DNA of 64,000 nucleotides from Candidatus Parcubacteria bacterium. GTDB lineage: Bacteria > Patescibacteriota > Patescibacteriia > UBA1558 > GWA2-36-10. Below the pieces are notes generated by a model, which was given only the letters and a program-made list of their open reading frames with translations, had not been told where the DNA came from and made no database searches. Shown here in pieces: positions 1 to 61,615 of this stretch. Location: NCBI GenBank assembly GCA_018664825.1, contig JABJNO010000002.1, positions 14,068 through 78,067 of the forward strand. Reading direction: 5' to 3'. Made by a program: the position numbers and the translations under genes. Within the stretch, counting starts at the first letter, position 1. Each line of letters starts with the position of its first letter.

Positions 1-1830
1 TTTGGGCACAGGAATAAAAGAAGCTCCTGAAAGGTATTTTCCGGTCAAAGATTTTTTGTTTTTTTTGATAGCCAACGGAGTACCTTCGGCCACAACCTTA
101 CCACCATGTTTACCGGCACCAGGCCCGATGTCTATAACATGATCAGATTCCAAAATAGTTTCTTCATCGTGTTCTACGACAATTACAGTGTTTCCCAGGT
201 CTCTTAAATTTTTTAATGTTTCAATAAGTCTATTATTGTCTCTCTGATGAAGACCAATAGAAGGTTCGTCCAAGATATACAAAACACCAGTAAGAGATGA
301 GCCAATTTGAGTAGCCAAACGAATACGTTGAGCTTCACCACCTGACAAAGTATTGGCTGATCTATCTATGGTCAAATAATTTAATCCTACATTAGCCAAA
401 AAATTGAGCCTTTCTCGAACTTCTCTCAATATCTGCTTGGCAATGATCATTTGTTGATTGGTCAGAGTCTTTGGTAGCTTGGTAAAAAAGCTCATTGCTT
501 CATCAATGTTCATTTCTACAATTTCGGCAATATTTTTATCAGTCACCTTGATGCTCAATATATTCTCTTTCAATCTTTTTCCCTTACATGTTTCACATAG
601 CTCTATCTTCATATAACGCTCAATCTCACTACGAATATAGTCCGAATCAGTCTCGCGATATCTTCTTTCAAGATTTGGGATTACACCCTCAAATTTTGTG
701 CTATAATCACCGTTGAATTTCGCACTATTATAATTTAGCTTGTACTCCTCATCGCCAGTACCATGCAAAATAATATCTAGATTTTTTTTGCTGAGTTTAC
801 TTACTGCTACGCGATTAGAAAATTTGTGTTTCTTTGAAACACCATCCAAAATAGCGGCATACCAACCCTGATTGGCAGCAGTTCTTGACCAAGGACGGAT
901 AGCTCCTTCGGCTAGGGCTAGATTTTTGTTTGGAATCACCAACCCTGGATCAATAGTAAGCTTGGTGCCAAGACCTGTACAATCAGGACAGGCTCCGTGA
1001 GGACTATTGAAAGAAAAATTTCTAGCTTCTATTTCTGGAAAATTTATTTCACTATGCTCTGGACAAGTAAACTGCTCACTAAAAGCAATGTCTTCGTTTT
1101 TCTTTGGTATGTGTACTACTACATAACTATTTCCCATATCCAAGCATACTTCCAAAGACTGCAGGAGGCGACTCTTGGTCTCACGAGTACCATCTCTACG
1201 CAGGCGATCTATCACTACTTCGATAGTGTGCTTTTTATATTTATCCAAATCTACATCAAGAGCCTCTTCTAGAGTAATTAGATCACCATCTAGCCTGACT
1301 CTTTTGTAACCAGCTATCTGGACACGCTCTAGGGCCTTTTTGTGCTCTCCTTTTTTATCTCGGACAATAGGAGCTAGCAACATAAACTCAGTTTCTGCTG
1401 GTAGGCGCCAAATTTTTTCTACTATTTGTTGCTGAGTTTGTTTGACTACCGCCTTACCACACTTGTAGCAATAAGGTACGCCAATCTTTGCAAATAATAA
1501 TCTAAGATAATCATAAATCTCTGTAACTGTACCGACGGTAGAGCGAGGATTTCTAGAAGATGATTTTTGATCTATAGAAATAGCTGGAGATAATCCATCT
1601 ATTTGTTCTACATCTGGCTTATCCATCAAACCCAAAAACTGCCGAGCATAAGAAGATAATGATTCAACATATCTCCTCTGCCCCTCGGCATAAATAGTAT
1701 CAAAGGCAAGTGATGATTTTCCCGAGCCAGACAAACCAGTAATCACAACTAGCTTATCGCGAGGGATCTTTACATCAACATTTTTAAGATTATGTACTGC
1801 TGCACCTTTGATAGTAATAAATTTTGGCAT
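1..1830 (-). CDS. uvrA: Excinuclease ABC subunit A (UvrA), N-terminal ~610 aa; the 3' part of the gene lies beyond the window start
   Basis: The reverse-strand translation starts [65 protein letters not shown], which is the UvrA N-terminal Walker A region. Zinc-finger Cys pairs and ABC signature regions follow. The ATG is at 1828-1830 on the complement strand and the ORF runs off the window at position 1. Confidence 0.9.
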
Positions 1831-16348: not shown

Positions 16349-17959
16349 ATGGAAAATAATAAAGAAAAATTATTAGAAAAAATAGTCCTCGAGCTGGCTG
16401 ATAAAAAATATCCAGTTGATTTAGATTTTATGAAAGCCTCACGACAAGTATTTAGTAAATACAAGCTCACTCCTGTACCAAAATCTGAACTCATTAAAGT
16501 ATATCGCAGATTGACCAAAGAGGGCAAATTGAAATCCGACAAAAGGTTTACCCAGCTCCTCGTCAAACGAGCGGTGCGCTCACTTTCTGGTGTTTCTGTC
16601 ATCACCGTCTTGTCAAAACCATTTGTCTGTCCAGGCAAGTGTGTCTACTGCCCAACTGAACCAGACATGCCAAAGAGCTATTTATCAAATGAGCCAGCTG
16701 CAGCTCGTGCCAAAATAAATCTTTTTTCTCCAATCAGGCAGGTAACCATGCGCATCAAGGCACTAGAAAACAATGGCCATCTAGTAGACAAGCTAGAGGT
16801 GCTGGTCTTGGGTGGTACCTGGTCTGTTTATCCAAGTAAATACCAAGATGACTTTATAAGAGATTTGTTTTTTGCTGCCAATACTTATGGAGAAGATAAA
16901 AAACGTGATCCACTGACCCTAGAAGAAGAACAAGCTATAAACGAAACAACCAAATACAAAATAATCGGCCTAACCCTAGAAACTCGTCCTGATTATATAA
17001 ATGAAACTGAAATAAAAAAACTTCGTCGTCTCGGTACTACTCGAGTTCAAATCGGAGTCCAGCATACTGACAACAAAATACTAGATTTGATAGTACGTGG
17101 TCACTCTATAGAAGAAAGTATCCGAGCTACCAAAATGCTCAAAGAGGCTGGCTTCAAAGTAGACCATCACTACATGCCCGATCTACCCGGCTCTACACCC
17201 AAAAAAGATTTGGAGATGTTTGAATATGTTTATAGCTCCCAGGACTTACAACCTGACCAAGTAAAAATCTACCCCTGCGTGGTCAATGAATATGCCGAGC
17301 TATATGATTGGTACAAAAAAGGTAAATACAAACCTTATTCTGAGAGTGAGCTTTTGGAATTATTGCTAAAAATAAAAATCATAACTCCTCCTTATGTCAG
17401 AATAAACAGGTTGATACGAGACATACCCGAAGAAAGTATTATAGCCGGAAACAAAATCACAAACCTACGACAATATTTACAAAATGAATTACAAAAACGT
17501 AATCAATCTTGCCAATGCCTGCGTTGTCGCGAAGTCCGTGGTGATTCCCAAGACGCAGACAAGGCTATTTTGGTAAAAAGAGAGTACAAAGCTTCTGATG
17601 GACAAGAAATATTTTTGAGCTACGAAAGTCCTGACAACAAAAAGGTCTATGCTTTTTTGAGACTTCGTATAAATGAAAATCCAAAAGAAAATATTTTCCC
17701 TGAACTAAAAAATGCCTCTATAGTCAGAGAGCTACACGTCTATGGTCAGATGATACCAGTCTATAGTGAAGACCAGGATGATGAAGTCTCTCAAACCCAG
17801 CACTTGGGCCTAGGTAAAAAGCTAATGGCTGAAGCAGAAAAAATAACTAAAGAAACCAAACTAAATAAAGTAGCCGTTATCTCTGGGATTGGAGTCCGAA
17901 ATTATTATAAAAAACTTGGGTACCAACTAGAGGGTACATATATGACCAAGTCTTTATAA
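16349..17959 (+). CDS. elp3: Elongator protein 3 homolog (radical SAM + C-terminal GNAT; tRNA uridine34 carboxymethyl transferase)
   Basis: The radical-SAM cysteine cluster SKPFVCPGKCVYCP is embedded in an Elp3-specific context. The C-terminal GNAT domain (...HLGLGKKLMAEAEK...GIGVRNYYKKLGYQLEGTYM) is also Elp3-like. The length from this start is 536 aa. Confidence 0.8.
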   Translation: MENNKEKLLEKIVLELADKKYPVDLDFMKASRQVFSKYKLTPVPKSELIKVYRRLTKEGKLKSDKRFTQLLVKRAVRSLSGVSVITVLSKPFVCPGKCVYCPTEPDMPKSYLSNEPAAARAKINLFSPIRQVTMRIKALENNGHLVDKLEVLVLGGTWSVYPSKYQDDFIRDLFFAANTYGEDKKRDPLTLEEEQAINETTKYKIIGLTLETRPDYINETEIKKLRRLGTTRVQIGVQHTDNKILDLIVRGHSIEESIRATKMLKEAGFKVDHHYMPDLPGSTPKKDLEMFEYVYSSQDLQPDQVKIYPCVVNEYAELYDWYKKGKYKPYSESELLELLLKIKIITPPYVRINRLIRDIPEESIIAGNKITNLRQYLQNELQKRNQSCQCLRCREVRGDSQDADKAILVKREYKASDGQEIFLSYESPDNKKVYAFLRLRINENPKENIFPELKNASIVRELHVYGQMIPVYSEDQDDEVSQTQHLGLGKKLMAEAEKITKETKLNKVAVISGIGVRNYYKKLGYQLEGTYMTKSL

Positions 17960-23867: not shown

Positions 23868-23883
23868 TCTACACAAAAACAAA

Positions 23884-23920
23884 AGCGGGCTGGAAAAATT
23901 TCCAGCCCGCTCTTTATTTT
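23884..23920. terminator. Bidirectional intrinsic terminator
   Basis: Perfect 10-bp stem agcgggctgg/ccagcccgct, 8-nt loop, A-run before and T-run after. It lies between convergent genes. Confidence 0.75.
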
Positions 23921-24704
23921 ATAATAATGTATTTTGCCAACTATCCATCTTACCTCCCAGTTTGAGATCTTTTATCCTGTCAATATCAAACATTCTTATA
24001 GCCTGTCGGAGATGACAGTAGGCTTTTATTTTATTTCCGGTAATTCGCTGAACATCAATCTTTCTTGAGGTGGTTTTGCCTGATTCATCCATATACTCTA
24101 TTTCCAACTGATCACCGTCTTTGAGGGCATCATGGACTTTTTGCTCAACTGTCCGACCATTGTTGTTGCCCCAACGAGCAATTATCTTTTCTTTGTGTCC
24201 AGAATTTTGATACCACATATGACCATGCTTCAAACCATAATCATATACTTCTTTGGTGACTTTGACATCATCTAAACAATACCTTATCAGATTGTCCCAA
24301 TCTTCATTGCGGTAATACACGATAGCATCAAGACCAGAGCCAGATTTGCCATAGCCTAGTGTGCTCTGTGCTACACTCTCTAGTTTCAGTCTATGCCCCA
24401 AAGCATGAACTACTTCTTCCAAGATATCCAAGTGAGGTATAGTAGATAAATCAAAATCTTTGTAATATGGCTGAAGAGCGGTATTATCAAAACTCTTACT
24501 ATTGAAACCGATCAACAATTCTGTATTTTTAAATATCTCCAAAAGCTCCCCAAACTCCTCTTCTTTGAAAGCACGATATTGATCTCTATTATAAGAATAA
24601 ATACCAACCACGGATACTTCCATTTTATCAATATGATCATAACCACCGACCTCGTCAAAGGTCTTTTTGGTTTCTAAATCAAATACTATTTTATCTTTTT
24701 TCAT
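23919..24704 (-). CDS. PolB-type (DEDDy) 3'-5' exonuclease fused to a C-terminal WYL-like domain
   Basis: Exo I FDLET, Exo II GFNSKSFDNTAL and Exo III YCLDDV (YxxxD) are all present. The C-terminal ~80 aa (LEIEYMDESGKTTSRKIDVQRITGNKIKAYCHLRQAIRMFDIDRI) fit the WYL-domain core pattern (..WYLvAyc.lrg.fRtFrldRI). Confidence 0.55.
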   Translation of the reverse strand: MKKDKIVFDLETKKTFDEVGGYDHIDKMEVSVVGIYSYNRDQYRAFKEEEFGELLEIFKNTELLIGFNSKSFDNTALQPYYKDFDLSTIPHLDILEEVVHALGHRLKLESVAQSTLGYGKSGSGLDAIVYYRNEDWDNLIRYCLDDVKVTKEVYDYGLKHGHMWYQNSGHKEKIIARWGNNNGRTVEQKVHDALKDGDQLEIEYMDESGKTTSRKIDVQRITGNKIKAYCHLRQAIRMFDIDRIKDLKLGGKMDSWQNTLL

Positions 24705-46399: not shown

Positions 46400-46402
46400 A
46401 CA

Positions 46403-46427
46403 AACGCCTCCACTCGGAGGCGTTTTT
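46403..46427 (+). terminator. Intrinsic terminator after ftsH
   Basis: Perfect 9-bp stem aacgcctcc/ggaggcgtt, loop actc, ttttt. Confidence 0.8.
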
Positions 46428-48890: not shown

Positions 48891-48913
48891 CATAAAGATA
48901 AACCCTAATATCA

Positions 48914-48944
48914 AAACTGCCCCTCTTGGCGGTTTTGTTTTTTT
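48914..48944 (+). terminator. Intrinsic terminator
   Basis: Stem aaactgcc/ggcggttt (8 bp, one G.U), 6-nt loop, T-run. Confidence 0.5.
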
Positions 48945-49985: not shown

Positions 49986-50010
49986 AACCCCCGCTAGTCG
50001 GGGGTTTTTT
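49986..50010 (+). terminator. Intrinsic terminator
   Basis: Stem aacccccg/cgggggtt, loop ctagt, tttttt. Confidence 0.75.
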
Positions 50011-51825: not shown

Positions 51826-51832
51826 AATTTAA

Positions 51833-51859
51833 ACACCGCCCTGGGGCGGTGTTTTTTTA
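51833..51859. terminator. Bidirectional intrinsic terminator (pilB / valS convergent)
   Basis: Perfect 8-bp stem acaccgcc/ggcggtgt, loop ctgg, ttttttt; A/T-rich upstream. Confidence 0.8.
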
Positions 51860-51892: not shown

Positions 51893-54739
51893 CTATTGGC
51901 CATTCACCTTGTTCTTGGCTTCGGCTAATCGTTTTTTTGTATCCTCTATCACCTGCGGTGGTGCATTGCTGACAAATTTTTCATTGGCTAGCTTGGCTTC
52001 TGTATTTTTAATATATTTTTCCAGATCTTGTTTTTCTTTGTCTGACAATTCTTTGGTCAAATCTATAAATACCTTACTGCTGTTTATGGCTATTGGTTTT
52101 ACATTTACTTTTTTGTCCGTCAGATTGACCCTAGCCATCTTGGCGGCAAGTTCTAGATATTTTTTATCCAAAATTTTACTGTCCAAATTACAATCGGGAA
52201 ATTCAGTTGGCGGTATCTTATTTTCAGCTTTAAGATTTCTTAAACTTACTACCAGTTCTTTGAGTTCAGTAAAATTTGTAATTACATCCTTATCCACTTT
52301 ACCAGCTTTGGGCCACTCTTTGACCATCATTAATTCTTTTTCACCAAATTGCTCCCAAATCACTTCTGTCACAAATGGAATAAAAGGATGACACAAAACA
52401 AGGAGTCTTTCCAAAATATAAAGTAATATCTCTTCTTTGTCTTTTTCTATTTTAGAAATTTCTAAATACCAATCTGCCAAATCATCCCAAGTAAAATGAT
52501 AAAGCTTGGTACCTGCTTCTGAAAAATGAAATTTTTCTAAGTCCTCGCTTATTTCTTTTATAGTTTCGTTAAATTCAGACAAAATCCACTTATCAGCCAG
52601 AGTTTTTGCCCTTGGTTGTTTTTTGACTCTTTTGACGTTGTCTGCACTGGTAAAAATAAATCGAGAAATATTCCAAAGTTTATTTACAAAATTTCTATAA
52701 CCCGCAATCTTGTCTTCATAAAGTCGCATATCTGCTCCTGGTGCAGATCCAATGATCAAAGACAGACGAAGTGCGTCGGTACCAAATTTTTCACTCATTT
52801 TTATCGGATCTATACCATTACCCAAAGACTTGGACATTTTTTTGCCATCCTTATCTCGGATCATACCATGTAGATAAACAGTATCAAATGGCTTTGTTTC
52901 CAAAACATACTCTGTCATCATTATCATCCTAGCTACCCAAAAAAATAAAATATCATAGCCAGTCTCCATTACAGAGCTTGGATGAAATAAATCTAGATCT
53001 GACTTTTTACTATAAACAAAATCATAAGCCCATAAGTCCGTATTATCCGTAATATCCTTGTCTGGATAATATTTTTTGAATGTTTTTTTGAAATCATCTT
53101 TATCCTTATACTCTTCGTGACCCTTTTGTTTGGGATCTACATCTTTAAACTTAATTTTTTGAATATTGGTAATTTTTATATAACCAAAATTTTTCTTTGT
53201 CTGAGTATTTTCCACAACAATAGTTTCACCAATACTATATCCCTTATCTGCCAATCTATATGTTTTGGTTTTTTCTCCACTCTCTACTATCTTGACCAAA
53301 TCTTTATCAAGACCAATTTTGTTTTGTATTGGCCACCCCAAAGTAGAAAAGGTCCAAAGTGAAGATGAAAACCAAGTATCAAGAGTGTCTTTGTCTTGAG
53401 TTAGTTTTTTATTACCAGCTTTTTTGTTTGCTTCAGTTTCATTTGGAGCTACTATCACCTCTCCATCCTCGGTATACCAAACAGGAATCCGATGTCCCCA
53501 CCAAATCTGACGAGAAATACACCAATCATGAAGATTTTCCATCCAATGATAATATGTTTTATCAAATCGCTTTGGTAATATTTCTATATCCCCACCTTTG
53601 ACGGCATTGATAGCCAATTCTTTGAGGCTCTTGCCTCGGCTTGGAATTTTTTTGTTTACCCTGACAAACCATTGTTCAGAAGTAAGTGGCTCAATAGGAG
53701 TATCACAACGATAACAAATAGAAAGATTGTTTTTTATACTATCTATTTTTTCTATTTGACCTGCTTTTTCCAAATCAGCTACAAATTCTCTTCTGGCTTG
53801 CAAAACATTTTTACCTTTGTACTTGCCACCGGTTTTCATGATATGTCCAGACTCATCAATCAGTTTGATAATTTCCAAATCATGCCTTTGAGCAAGCTCA
53901 TAATCAGTTGTACTGTGAGCAGGGGTTACTCCCACTACTCCACTACCAAATCTTTTATCGATTTCTTTATCGGCAATGACTTTTACTTTTATCTTGTGTC
54001 CAGCCAGATCTATATCCAGCTCTTGCCCAACATATTTTTTGTATCTTCGATCACTCGGGTGGACAGCTACACCAGTATCGGCTAGTTTTGTTTCTGGTCT
54101 AGTCGTTGCCACTACAAATGGACCATATTTTATATAATATAGTTTAGCGTCTTGTTCTTTGTGTTCTACTTCATCGTCAGCTAGGGTAGAGGCGCAGCGC
54201 GGACACCAATTGACTATCCGATAATCCCTCTCTATCAAACCGTCGTCATACATTTTGACAAAAGCTTGATTGACCGCCTTTGATAAGCCGTCGTCAAAAG
54301 TATATCTTTCACGAGACCAATCACAACTAGAGCCCATCTTGCGAGTTTGTTTGCGGATGGTACCTTGTGAGCTAGCTACGTATTCTTTGACTCTGCCCAA
54401 AAACTTTTCTCGACCAAGTTTTTTTCTGTCTGTACCCTCGATAGCCAAAATCTTTTCTACCTTTGTCTGGGTAGCAATAGCCGCATGGTCAGTACCTGGC
54501 ACCCAAAGAGCCTTATCGCCCTTGAGGCGGTGGAAACGGACCATTAGGTCTTCGTAGGCCAAAGCAGCGGCATGCCCCAGATGCAAAATACCAGTAGCAT
54601 TTGGTGGTGGCATAGATATGACAAAAGGCTTCCCCTTGGCTTTGAGCTTGTCAGGATCAAAAAGACCAGACTCTTCCCAGGTCTTATAAATATCATCTTC
54701 ATATTTGGTTGGCTCGTAAGCTTTGGCTAATTCTTGCAT
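51893..54739 (-). CDS. valS: Valyl-tRNA synthetase
   Basis: HIGH region PPPNATGILHLGHA, KMSKS, and a C-terminal coiled coil. The start is set at the internal ATG (MQELAKAYEP), because the ORF-track extension runs through the leader terminator. Confidence 0.9.
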   Translation of the reverse strand: MQELAKAYEPTKYEDDIYKTWEESGLFDPDKLKAKGKPFVISMPPPNATGILHLGHAAALAYEDLMVRFHRLKGDKALWVPGTDHAAIATQTKVEKILAIEGTDRKKLGREKFLGRVKEYVASSQGTIRKQTRKMGSSCDWSRERYTFDDGLSKAVNQAFVKMYDDGLIERDYRIVNWCPRCASTLADDEVEHKEQDAKLYYIKYGPFVVATTRPETKLADTGVAVHPSDRRYKKYVGQELDIDLAGHKIKVKVIADKEIDKRFGSGVVGVTPAHSTTDYELAQRHDLEIIKLIDESGHIMKTGGKYKGKNVLQARREFVADLEKAGQIEKIDSIKNNLSICYRCDTPIEPLTSEQWFVRVNKKIPSRGKSLKELAINAVKGGDIEILPKRFDKTYYHWMENLHDWCISRQIWWGHRIPVWYTEDGEVIVAPNETEANKKAGNKKLTQDKDTLDTWFSSSLWTFSTLGWPIQNKIGLDKDLVKIVESGEKTKTYRLADKGYSIGETIVVENTQTKKNFGYIKITNIQKIKFKDVDPKQKGHEEYKDKDDFKKTFKKYYPDKDITDNTDLWAYDFVYSKKSDLDLFHPSSVMETGYDILFFWVARMIMMTEYVLETKPFDTVYLHGMIRDKDGKKMSKSLGNGIDPIKMSEKFGTDALRLSLIIGSAPGADMRLYEDKIAGYRNFVNKLWNISRFIFTSADNVKRVKKQPRAKTLADKWILSEFNETIKEISEDLEKFHFSEAGTKLYHFTWDDLADWYLEISKIEKDKEEILLYILERLLVLCHPFIPFVTEVIWEQFGEKELMMVKEWPKAGKVDKDVITNFTELKELVVSLRNLKAENKIPPTEFPDCNLDSKILDKKYLELAAKMARVNLTDKKVNVKPIAINSSKVFIDLTKELSDKEKQDLEKYIKNTEAKLANEKFVSNAPPQVIEDTKKRLAEAKNKVNGQ

Positions 54740-54749
54740 AATTTTGTTT

Positions 54750-54930
54750 AAAAAATAAAAACGCAAAATAATTGCGTTTAAGGGCCCAAAAAATTGGACG
54801 GTACCACCTTAATTTGTTCTTGATTTTGACGCTATAACGGGCGCACCCCGACAGGTTCTACCTTGGTTCTTCCTGCAGCTCTTCGAGTGACATGAATCTC
54901 GAATCAAACGCTTTTTATTTGATTATAGTA
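54750..54930 (-). promoter_or_regulatory. Candidate T-box riboswitch leader (Val specifier GUC) with intrinsic terminator, upstream of valS
   Basis: The minus strand reads AAAUUAAGGUGGUACCGUCC (54815-54796), matching the T-box consensus AAUUAGGGUGGNACCGCG. The upstream hairpin UUCGAG-AUUCAUGUCA-CUCGAA presents GUC followed by A. A terminator hairpin ACGCAA-UUAUU-UUGCGU plus a U-run (54777-54750) ends 11 nt before the valS ATG. Confidence 0.55.
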
Positions 54931-54935
54931 ATACA

Positions 54936-54964
54936 ATGATACAATTTATCATTATATTAGTCAA
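54936..54964 (-). promoter_or_regulatory. Putative promoter for the valS leader (TTGACT-17-TATCAT)
   Basis: Minus strand: TTGACT at 54964-54959 (overlapping the tsaE stop), 17-nt spacer, TATCAT at 54941-54936. Confidence 0.35.
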
Positions 54965-55379
54965 TTATGATTTTTCTTTTGTCTCCACCCAAACTTTCTA
55001 TCTTTATATATATTGTACCCTCGGGTAAATCATTTATTTTATCAGCCCACTCTACCACTACCACATTGTTGTCATGATTTAGGTAATCACCCAGGCCAAT
55101 ATCTTGCAAATCCTCAGCATGCTCCAAACGATAACAATCTACATGCACCAATCTTTCTACTTTGCCAAAATCAGCATCATATACTTTCATCAAAACAAAA
55201 GTAGGGCTAGTGATGTTGTCCTCTATGCCCATAGCTCGAGCCAGGGCTTTGACAAAAACAGTCTTACCGGCTCCTAGGTTGCCTGCCAAGGCAATGAGCT
55301 CACCGCCCCGAAGAGTACCAGCTACTTCTTTGGCTATTTTCTGAGTGTCGCCTATATTGTTACTTGTATATTCTTTCAT
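54957..55379 (-). CDS. tsaE: tRNA threonylcarbamoyladenosine biosynthesis ATPase TsaE
   Basis: P-loop GNLGAGKTVFVKALARAMG; 140 aa. Confidence 0.8.
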   Translation of the reverse strand: MKEYTSNNIGDTQKIAKEVAGTLRGGELIALAGNLGAGKTVFVKALARAMGIEDNITSPTFVLMKVYDADFGKVERLVHVDCYRLEHAEDLQDIGLGDYLNHDNNVVVVEWADKINDLPEGTIYIKIESLGGDKRKIIID

Positions 55380-61251: not shown

Positions 61252-61262
61252 TCTACAATCAA

Positions 61263-61289
61263 AAAACCACCCCGAGAGGGGTGGTTTTT
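61263..61289. terminator. Bidirectional intrinsic terminator
   Basis: Perfect 9-bp stem aaccacccc/ggggtggtt, loop gaga, ttttt. Confidence 0.8.
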
Positions 61290-61311
61290 ATTTATCTATA
61301 TAAATATAGAT

Positions 61312-61509
61312 TTAGGCTTTTGCAACTTTTACAGCAGCTTGACCTTTTGGGGTGTCGCTTACTTCAAAAGTAACAGCATCACCTTCTTGTAATTCACTGA
61401 AATCTAAACCTTCTAGTTCATTTGCGTGAAAGAATAAATCTTTGTCAGCACCCTCTGGTGTAATGAAACCGAAGTTTTTGTCAGTCAATTTTTTGATAAT
61501 TCCTTGCAT
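61312..61509 (-). CDS. cspA: Cold-shock protein (CspA family)
   Basis: MQGIIKKLTDKNFGFITPEGADKDLFFH, a canonical cold-shock domain; 65 aa. Confidence 0.85.
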   Translation of the reverse strand: MQGIIKKLTDKNFGFITPEGADKDLFFHANELEGLDFSELQEGDAVTFEVSDTPKGQAAVKVAKA

Positions 61510-61615
61510 ACTAAATGTAGAAATAAAATTGAATTAACATATAGAAGCTTTGAGAATTCGACGTTATTTCTCCACTTACTATACTCATGAACAACCTTGT
61601 TGATTGTTCGAAGCC

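Follow-up and report, generated by a model that had tools for sequence, protein, structure and literature searches.

The window, which is the whole stretch of DNA analysed here, comprises 64,000 nucleotides (nt) from a Candidatus Parcubacteria bacterium. Within it, the genes tsaE and valS are separated by a gap of 225 nt, which we analysed on the minus strand, i.e. the strand of valS. We identified a T-box leader on this strand at 54916..54750, directly upstream of valS, and its sequence features indicate that it is a real, strongly reduced tRNA-sensing T-box riboswitch. The original prediction for this gap, a valine T-box controlling valS, is supported by an invariant GUC specifier, by covariation and by homologous leaders located before valS. 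The features of the locus, in the direction of transcription, are as follows.

54957..55379, minus strand: tsaE (Pfam TsaE, E 6e-37), the same-strand upstream neighbour, given as context and outside the riboswitch
54936..54964, minus strand: promoter-like site found by a consensus scan, with TTGACT (54964..54959), a spacer of 17 nt and TATCAT (54941..54936)
54877..54912, minus strand: Stem I, with basal helix AGC/GCU, kink-turn (K-turn)-like GUUUGA / GA, upper helix UUCGAG/CUCGAA and a 10-nt terminal loop
54888..54897, minus strand: specifier loop AUUCAUGUCA, with the valine codon GUC at 54891..54889 and then A 54888
54852..54875, minus strand: Stem II, with lower helix CAGG/CCUG, S-turn strands AAGAA / GUAGAA and a distal helix reduced to CCAAGG
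54829..54850, minus strand: Stem IIA/B pseudoknot with F-box CCGUUA, CGGGGUGCGCCCGUUAUAGCGU
54813..54828, minus strand: linker in place of Stem III, CAAAAUCAAGAACAAA, with no helix and with the flanking purines AAG ... AA retained (AAGAAC-AA)
54778..54812, minus strand: T-box sequence and antiterminator, with helix A1 UUAAGG/CCUUAA, bulge UGGUACC, and helix A2 GUCCAA/UUGGGC with loop UUUU
54750..54779, minus strand: intrinsic-terminator-like hairpin AAACGCAA-UUAUU-UUGCGUUU (54779..54759), then the U-run UUAUUUUUU (54758..54750)
51893..54739, minus strand: valS, the putative regulated gene (948 amino acids, ATG at 54739)

The aptamer is 139 nt long, from the 5' A-run through the end of A1, and a transcript from the promoter-like site at 54964..54936 would carry a leader of roughly 190 nt. 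The match to the T-box consensus that had been claimed for the valS strand is present as AAAUUAAGGUGGUACCGUCC at 54815..54796. Its core, GGTGGTACCG, has a single exact match in the 64-kb window, and there are 3 matches at one mismatch against 0.54 expected. The stretch AAUUAAGGUGGUACCGUC folds into A1 and A2, and the 7-nt bulge UGGUACC lies at 54806..54800. Upstream, a hairpin loop presenting GUC-A was also correctly predicted. This loop directly closes the 6-bp (base pair) upper helix of Stem I, formed by 54903..54898 and 54887..54882. We found no distal stem, AG bulge, distal loop or elbow-binding platform in Stem I of the window leader, consistent with the earlier suggestion that Stem I is reduced and carries the specifier in its terminal loop.

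A search of the window with the Rfam T-box model RF00230 yielded no match at the gathering score, and Rfam at gathering thresholds gives only a tRNA. In E-value mode, the model aligns end to end to 54917..54777 with 33.9 bits (gathering score 93), which corresponds to an E-value of 6e-6 for a 501-nt stretch and of 7.9e-4 for the whole window against all 4227 families. The T-box region is aligned with high posterior probability. The score is low because 75 Stem I positions of the model are replaced by 11 nt and 19 Stem III positions by 2 nt. The scan that the original prediction had proposed thus gave a statistically significant match, yet by the gathering test the leader is no standard member of RF00230. 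Homologous leaders from other loci reach 37-62 bits, and those of L020 and L076 (survey loci are denoted by L and a number) are undetected at E <= 0.01. As all leaders of the group fall below the Rfam gathering score, they are overlooked by standard annotation.

We surveyed 80 species-representative valS loci and carried out one metagenome pattern scan (TTAAGGTGGTACCGTCN{8,30}CCCTTAA). The nearest relatives of the window's valyl-tRNA synthetase (ValRS) occur only in metagenome-assembled genomes of Patescibacteria (the candidate phyla radiation), the best being 81% identical and labelled Candidatus Komeilibacteria (Parcubacteria group). Homologous leaders occur in only five of the 80 loci: L007, L012, L015, L020 (labelled Saccharibacteria) and L076. 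Among the matches listed, the pattern scan contributed L081, which is closely related to the window, as well as L083, L086 and the 5'-cut L084, together with duplicates of L012 and L015. Every leader found stands directly before valS, so that the prediction of the same leader in related genomes is borne out by sequences that are both present and covarying. Close relatives lacking the T-box are of two kinds. In L003, L009, L013 and L014, tsaE abuts valS. In L010 and L017, which are close relatives of L007, a TTGACT promoter is followed by a leader of about 35-40 nt with neither T-box nor hairpin, which looks like a clean loss, or absence, of the whole riboswitch unit. The patchy presence among close relatives suggests that the leader was gained or lost recently as a unit.

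Two further observations concern the survey sequences. Many ValRS records at 51-75% identity are titled 'uncultured Gammaproteobacteria' or 'Nitrospirota' (L001, L009, L012, L013, L014 and others); these titles on Patescibacteria-like ValRS records are probably taxonomic mislabels. An identical ValRS with the tsaD-tsaE-valS neighbourhood was found in JGI 3300037805, JGI 3300022916, ENA ERZ4231634 and ERZ27250245 (L087-L090). JGI 3300022916 also holds a leader of the L012 type (L085), and thus two T-box-bearing lineages are present in one sample.

We aligned the nine distinct full-length leaders, window included and the 5'-cut L084 left outside, and scored a hand-drawn structure consisting of the Stem I base and upper helix, lower Stem II, IIA, the IIB pseudoknot, Stem III, A1 and A2. 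Standard pairs fill 96.2% of the cells of this shared structure, against 21-51% when partners are slid by 1-3 columns. Changes on both sides are seen in 23 of the 38 pairs (at most 9 in the slid controls), and none of 500 shuffles reaches the observed values. Compensatory change affects 6/6 pairs of the upper Stem I helix, 1/3 basal Stem I pairs and 4/4 pairs of the lower Stem II helix, the last being 100% paired. The IIA and IIB pairs are 96-100% paired, with covariation in IIA (96%); the IIB helix is GCGC/GCGY in the core group, AAGC/GCUU in L076 and GCUC/GAGC in L020, i.e. its pairing is kept while its sequence has changed. In both A1 and A2, 98% of cells are paired, and covarying pairs number 3 in A1 and 4 in A2. 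Other elements are fixed in sequence, including the S-turn strands (the AGAA and U-A-A positions) and the bulge UGGUACC (9/9 leaders). At its base, A2 has a G-C pair in each of the nine leaders (alignment columns 172 and 199), where the RF00230 consensus has G...U.

Two peripheral helices vary between leaders. L007, L012, L015, L083 and L076 have a distal Stem II helix, which the window and L081 lack. Stem III is absent from the window, L081, L084 and L020, and occurs as AAG(U/C)(G/A)-Stem III-AA in L007, L012, L086, L015 and L083. The motif RRRxG-Stem III-AA is kept in four of these (L007, L012, L015 and L083); in L086, the helix is preceded by AAGUA.

From this alignment we derived a covariance model (R1), which was searched against 743 kb of sequence, comprising the window and 86 loci, and matched only the leaders themselves. 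R1 thus detected no further T-box elsewhere in the window or in the flanks of the 86 loci. Near-matches to GGTGGTACCG at 16811 and 41333 had been considered as further T-boxes and were rejected by this model.

The leader ends in a terminator-like hairpin whose stem has 8 bp and whose first two A residues (54779 and 54778) are also the last two of A1. The hairpin and U-run before the valS ATG were predicted correctly, with the distance from the end of the U-run to the ATG being 10 nt rather than 11; the hairpin itself ends 19 nt before the ATG and leaves the start codon uncovered. In all nine leaders, the hairpin abuts A1 without a spacer, and our reading of the sequences and folds is that its two basal pairs use the last two A1 residues throughout (AA in the window group, GA in L020 and CC in L076). 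Hairpin and U-run occur in all terminator-type leaders and are lacking in the T-box-less L010 and L017. For comparison, intrinsic terminators at gene ends in the window, also a hairpin and a U-run, have stems of 8-12 bp, the strongest with 5-6 G-C pairs. Examples are located at:

46402-46425: gene-end terminator, hairpin and U-run
48912-48937: gene-end terminator, hairpin and U-run
49986-50006: gene-end terminator, hairpin and U-run
51831-51854: gene-end terminator, hairpin and U-run
61262-61289: gene-end terminator, hairpin and U-run

With 3 G-C pairs against these 5-6, the leader hairpin would be of marginal strength, as expected for a regulated terminator. The terminator at 51831..51854 is a perfect bidirectional one, AAACACCGCCC-TGGG-GCGGTGTTT, between the convergent gene for a T2SSE-family ATPase (end 51825) and valS (end 51893), and the form AAAC...GTTT is common to several gene-end terminators in the window. 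As a separate observation, the core of the leader's terminator stem, ACGC/GCGU, is invariant in sequence across the window group (L007, L012, L015, L083, L084 and L086), while Stem I, Stem II and A2 covary freely. The GCGY and UGCGC motifs of this core also form the IIB helix of the pseudoknot.

We predict that the leader is a tRNA-Val(GAC)-specific T-box, and it probably acts by setting read-through of the weak intrinsic terminator into valS. Uncharged tRNA-Val would base-pair through its anticodon to GUC and through its ACCA end to UGGU of the bulge, and would stack on A1. The bound tRNA would lock the six pairs of A1, including the U-A pairs that hold A 54779 and A 54778, the same residues that form the basal pairs of the terminator stem, with no spacer between terminator and A1. 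Locking A1 in this way would shorten the terminator from 8 bp to 6 bp, and the rigid tRNA complex against its 5' arm would probably hinder completion of the weak hairpin inside RNA polymerase, so that valS is transcribed. With charged tRNA or no tRNA, A1 would fray, the full hairpin would form and transcription would stop near 54750. Two pairs alone make an energy difference of about 1-2 kcal/mol, which is small, and a steric effect is therefore likely to contribute. The coupling of sensing to termination is the least certain part of this account.

Folding energies bear directly on this coupling. In the window, the antiterminator (A1 with 6 bp, and A2) has -10.1 kcal/mol, the 8-bp terminator -8.3 kcal/mol and the two together -17.0 kcal/mol; A1 (6 bp) with a 6-bp terminator has -16.8 kcal/mol versus -16.2 kcal/mol for A1 (4 bp) with an 8-bp terminator. 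The 5' arm of the terminator is not built from the 3' strands of A1 and A2, and the overlap with A1 is confined to the 2 nt. The mutually exclusive pairing of antiterminator and terminator that the original prediction had expected was therefore not found. That prediction made its T-box interpretation fall only with the failure of both the covariance-model search and the exclusive pairing; given the significant RF00230 match, the interpretation survives, and the switching mechanism, as modelled, is not the textbook one.

Three alternative pairings were considered and rejected. For a terminator extended over the 3' strands of A2 and A1, there is no complementarity past the two A residues (the next oppositions are U·U, U·U and C·A), and the energies agree. 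A long-range helix of GCGUUUGA with UUAAACGC, joining the 5' end of the leader to the terminator 5' arm in the minimum-free-energy fold of the full leader, lacks complementarity in L007, L012 and L086. In some minimum-free-energy folds, the T-box strand pairs with the beginning of the coding region, but the leaders do not agree in this. The full-leader fold is not unusually stable (z = -1.18).

Several points weigh against a tRNA-Val-sensing T-box that sets termination. In the nearest-neighbour model, antiterminator and terminator do not exclude each other and coexist in the minimum-free-energy fold, as they do side by side in L007, L012, L086, L015 and L020, so that textbook mutual exclusion is absent; a 6-bp stem followed by a U-run could still terminate. 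The leader is without three parts that are held to be functional (PMC7583486), namely the long Stem I platform, Stem III and the G·U pair of A2, and it does not reach the Rfam gathering score. A tRNA-Val gene was found neither in the window nor in any T-box-bearing locus.

The locus L076, from a G+C-rich genome, is informative about the junction. Its hairpin CCUCAU/AUGAGG covers GAGG 7 nt before the ATG, and the hairpin energy changes from -6.9 to -0.5 kcal/mol once both shared C residues pair in A1. In the folding model, this junction makes a convincing minimal switch, and the control of hairpin stability by two shared C residues favours a two-nucleotide toggle as the common principle of these leaders.

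Alternatively, a functional tRNA-Val T-box could be coupled to its output by means other than a toggle. The tRNA-bound discriminator may sterically block hairpin formation in the exit channel of the polymerase, or the hairpin and U-run may affect ribosome loading on a start codon without a Shine-Dalgarno (SD) sequence, amounting to dual or translational control. The coexistence of both structures means that simple base competition explains little, and the lack of a spacer between A1 and hairpin in all nine leaders speaks for such coupling, as does L020, whose ATG directly follows the U-run. The letters upstream of the valS start, aaacaaaatt-ATG, contain no SD motif. An SD-like motif was found within 22 nt upstream of the ATG in just 2 of the 43 window open reading frames (ORFs) of at least 200 amino acids, and the window's ORF starts are preceded by A/T-rich sequence. 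The source organism thus appears to be essentially SD-less, which, with the A/U-rich stretch before the valS start, would suit ribosome-loading control. Sequestration of an SD sequence was rejected for the window leader, where it is no option given these counts. Against these other forms of coupling stand the window hairpin, which stops short of the start codon, and L076, where the shared C residues decide the stability of the SD-covering hairpin. We consider it rather unlikely that such coupling replaces the toggle.

Comparison of closely related leaders allowed us to ask how fast this structure changes. A comparison of the window with L081 gives 208 differences at 679 third positions of identical ValRS codons (31%) and about 9 changes in the 195-nt leader, the latter a rate roughly 6 times slower. 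The segment that starts at the T-box 3' strand and includes the terminator, the U-run and the spacer up to the ATG has no change at all. Between L012 and L086, third positions differ by 31% and the leader by about 11%, with changes located in loops or compensatory, e.g. A2 GUCGAGU/ACUCGAC to GUCAAGU/ACUUGGC. Judged from these substitutions, the leader is under clear purifying selection, and its slow change suggests that the reduced form is being maintained and is not decaying. This argues against a decaying relic that no longer senses tRNA and whose hairpin is a constitutive partial attenuator. A relic would account for the loss of Stem III and distal Stem II in the window lineage, for the replacement of the G·U sensor pair by G-C, and for the loss of the whole leader in the close relatives L010, L017, L003, L009, L013 and L014. 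It is hard to reconcile with a reduced form common to the window and L081, with the lack of Stem III also in L084 and, independently, in L020, or with an intact GUC, UGGUACC, S-turn and pseudoknot. We regard it as very improbable.

The specificity for valine is indicated by GUC itself, which is invariant in all nine full-length leaders at the 3' edge of the terminal loop, while other loop bases vary. The base that follows is A in 7 leaders, G in 1 and C in 1, i.e. a purine in 8/9. In known T-boxes, the specifier lies at the 3' edge of the loop and is followed by a purine (PMC7583486), and NNC triplets are the commonest specifiers (TBDB preprint). The UGGU of the bulge complements the 3' ACCA of tRNA-Val, which requires a discriminator A73. 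The tRNA-Val(GAC) genes near valS in the Patescibacteria relatives L022, L050 and L053 all have A73. In these T-box-less loci, tRNA-Val(GAC) and tRNA-Ile(UAU) genes lie at most 3 kb upstream of valS (L022 1530..1691, L050 265..429 and L053 118..1417).

A T-box of other specificity would read an overlapping loop triplet, UCN (serine), AUG (methionine) or CAU (histidine), all of which AUUCAUGUCA contains; with A, G or C after GUC, moreover, UCA, UCG and UCC are all serine codons. Yet valS lies downstream of every leader, the L020 loop of just 6 nt (CUGUCA) has neither AUG nor CAU, and the placement of GUC-A at the loop edge before a purine, with an NNC specifier, fits the known pattern, which makes a different amino acid highly improbable. 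Finally, we reject the possibility that an A/T-rich intergenic region resembles the T-box consensus by chance, for which only the Rfam score far under the gathering score could be adduced, given the window-wide E-value, the conserved homologues with compensatory changes in every helix and an R1 search that matched nothing else.

We propose that the TTGACT/TATCAT site, whose -35 box overlaps the stop codon of tsaE, works as promoter for the valS leader. The pattern TTGACT-17-TAYNNT also precedes the homologous leaders of L012, L015, L083 and L086, as well as valS in the T-box-less L010 and L017. The product of valS is a class I ValRS (Pfam tRNA-synt_1, E 5e-128; Anticodon_1; Val_tRNA-synt_C). 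Its residues 478-560 form an ASCH domain (Pfam PF04266, E 9e-7) inserted within the synthetase. By tblastn against the 86 loci, this insert is found only in L001, L018, L071 and L006, and the closest ValRS relatives (L081, L003, L007 and others; about 840 amino acids) are without it.

Other structured regions were indicated by sub-threshold Rfam matches. The cspA thermoregulator family matches the window at 61259..61533 on the minus strand (38 bits; gathering score 78) and L086 at 821..1104 on the plus strand (35 bits). As the match adjoins a tRNA-Glu(UUC) gene in both, it may mark a conserved structured region. A ribosomal protein L20 leader match lies at 23871..23957 on the minus strand (34.2 bits; gathering score 58.7; E 0.006).

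The window leader shares with canonical class I transcriptional T-boxes of Firmicutes (e.g. Bacillus subtilis tyrS and valS; RF00230) a K-turn in basal Stem I, a specifier codon (GUC for valine) with a purine after it, an S-turn in Stem II, a IIA/B pseudoknot with F-box, the succession of A1, UGGNACC bulge and A2, and a hairpin with U-run before an aminoacyl-tRNA synthetase gene. It differs in that it has no distal Stem I platform for the tRNA elbow, a truncated Stem II, no Stem III helix and a G-C rather than a G·U pair at the base of A2. Its A1 has 6 bp versus 4 in the Rfam consensus, its terminator abuts A1 with a 2-nt overlap instead of recruiting the 3' strands of A1 and A2, its score of 33.9 bits compares with 93 for the gathering score, and its host belongs to the Patescibacteria. 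Read from its sequence, the leader carries the T-box core features (T-box sequence, bulge, specifier, S-turn and pseudoknot) and yet falls outside class I by gathering score, platform, Stem III, G·U pair and overlapping terminator.

In the translational ileS T-boxes of Actinobacteria with ultrashort Stem I (Mycobacterium and Nocardia; Sherwood et al. 2015 per PMC7583486; TBDB class II, PMC7778990), the specifier likewise lies in the Stem I terminal loop and there is no elbow platform. The window leader differs from these in phylum, in serving valine and valS instead of isoleucine and ileS, in the absence of Stem III from its lineage, and in an output formed by a terminator and U-run in an SD-less genome and not by SD sequestration; L076 alone in this family sequesters GAGG. 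The glyQS T-boxes, a natural minimal transcriptional class, are also naturally reduced and still end in a terminator. They are without Stem II and IIA/B but have a long Stem I and Stem III (PMC7583486), so that the window leader is reduced in the opposite way.

Current descriptions hold that transcriptional T-boxes generally depend on the long Stem I platform to capture tRNA quickly, that the tRNA 3' end cannot be bound without Stem III, that the 3'-aminoacyl group is sensed, by a steric effect, mainly through the conserved G·U pair at the base of A2, and that an ultrashort Stem I goes with translational control, as in the actinobacterial ileS T-boxes (PMC7583486). T-boxes are known mainly from Firmicutes and Actinobacteria, with few in Chloroflexi and Deinococcus-Thermus and rare cases in Proteobacteria (PMC2494555; TBDB preprint). 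Our full-text literature search returned no paper in which T-boxes are connected with the candidate phyla radiation, Patescibacteria or Saccharibacteria, a result that is limited to the literature searched and is no proof of novelty.

We tentatively suggest, as a possibility about which we remain doubtful, that the valS leaders of Patescibacteria form a distinct T-box class. In such a class, coupling would run via the junction of A1 and hairpin (by a two-nucleotide toggle, steric exclusion or both) and not via competing helices, and the leaders would be transcriptional without an elbow platform, without Stem III (in the window lineage) and without the G·U sensor. If this is true, the window leader would be the smallest natural co-transcriptional T-box. 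Elbow platform, Stem III and G·U pair would then be dispensable or replaceable, e.g. by the abutting hairpin stacking under A1 in the place of Stem III.

By joining a decoding module of the actinobacterial type to a terminator, with three parts missing and under purifying selection, the window leader challenges the structure-function statements of PMC7583486. It may serve as a compact natural test case for which parts of a T-box are truly required for co-transcriptional sensing, and it would be a case in which highly reduced, SD-less bacteria regulate a gene in response to an amino acid.

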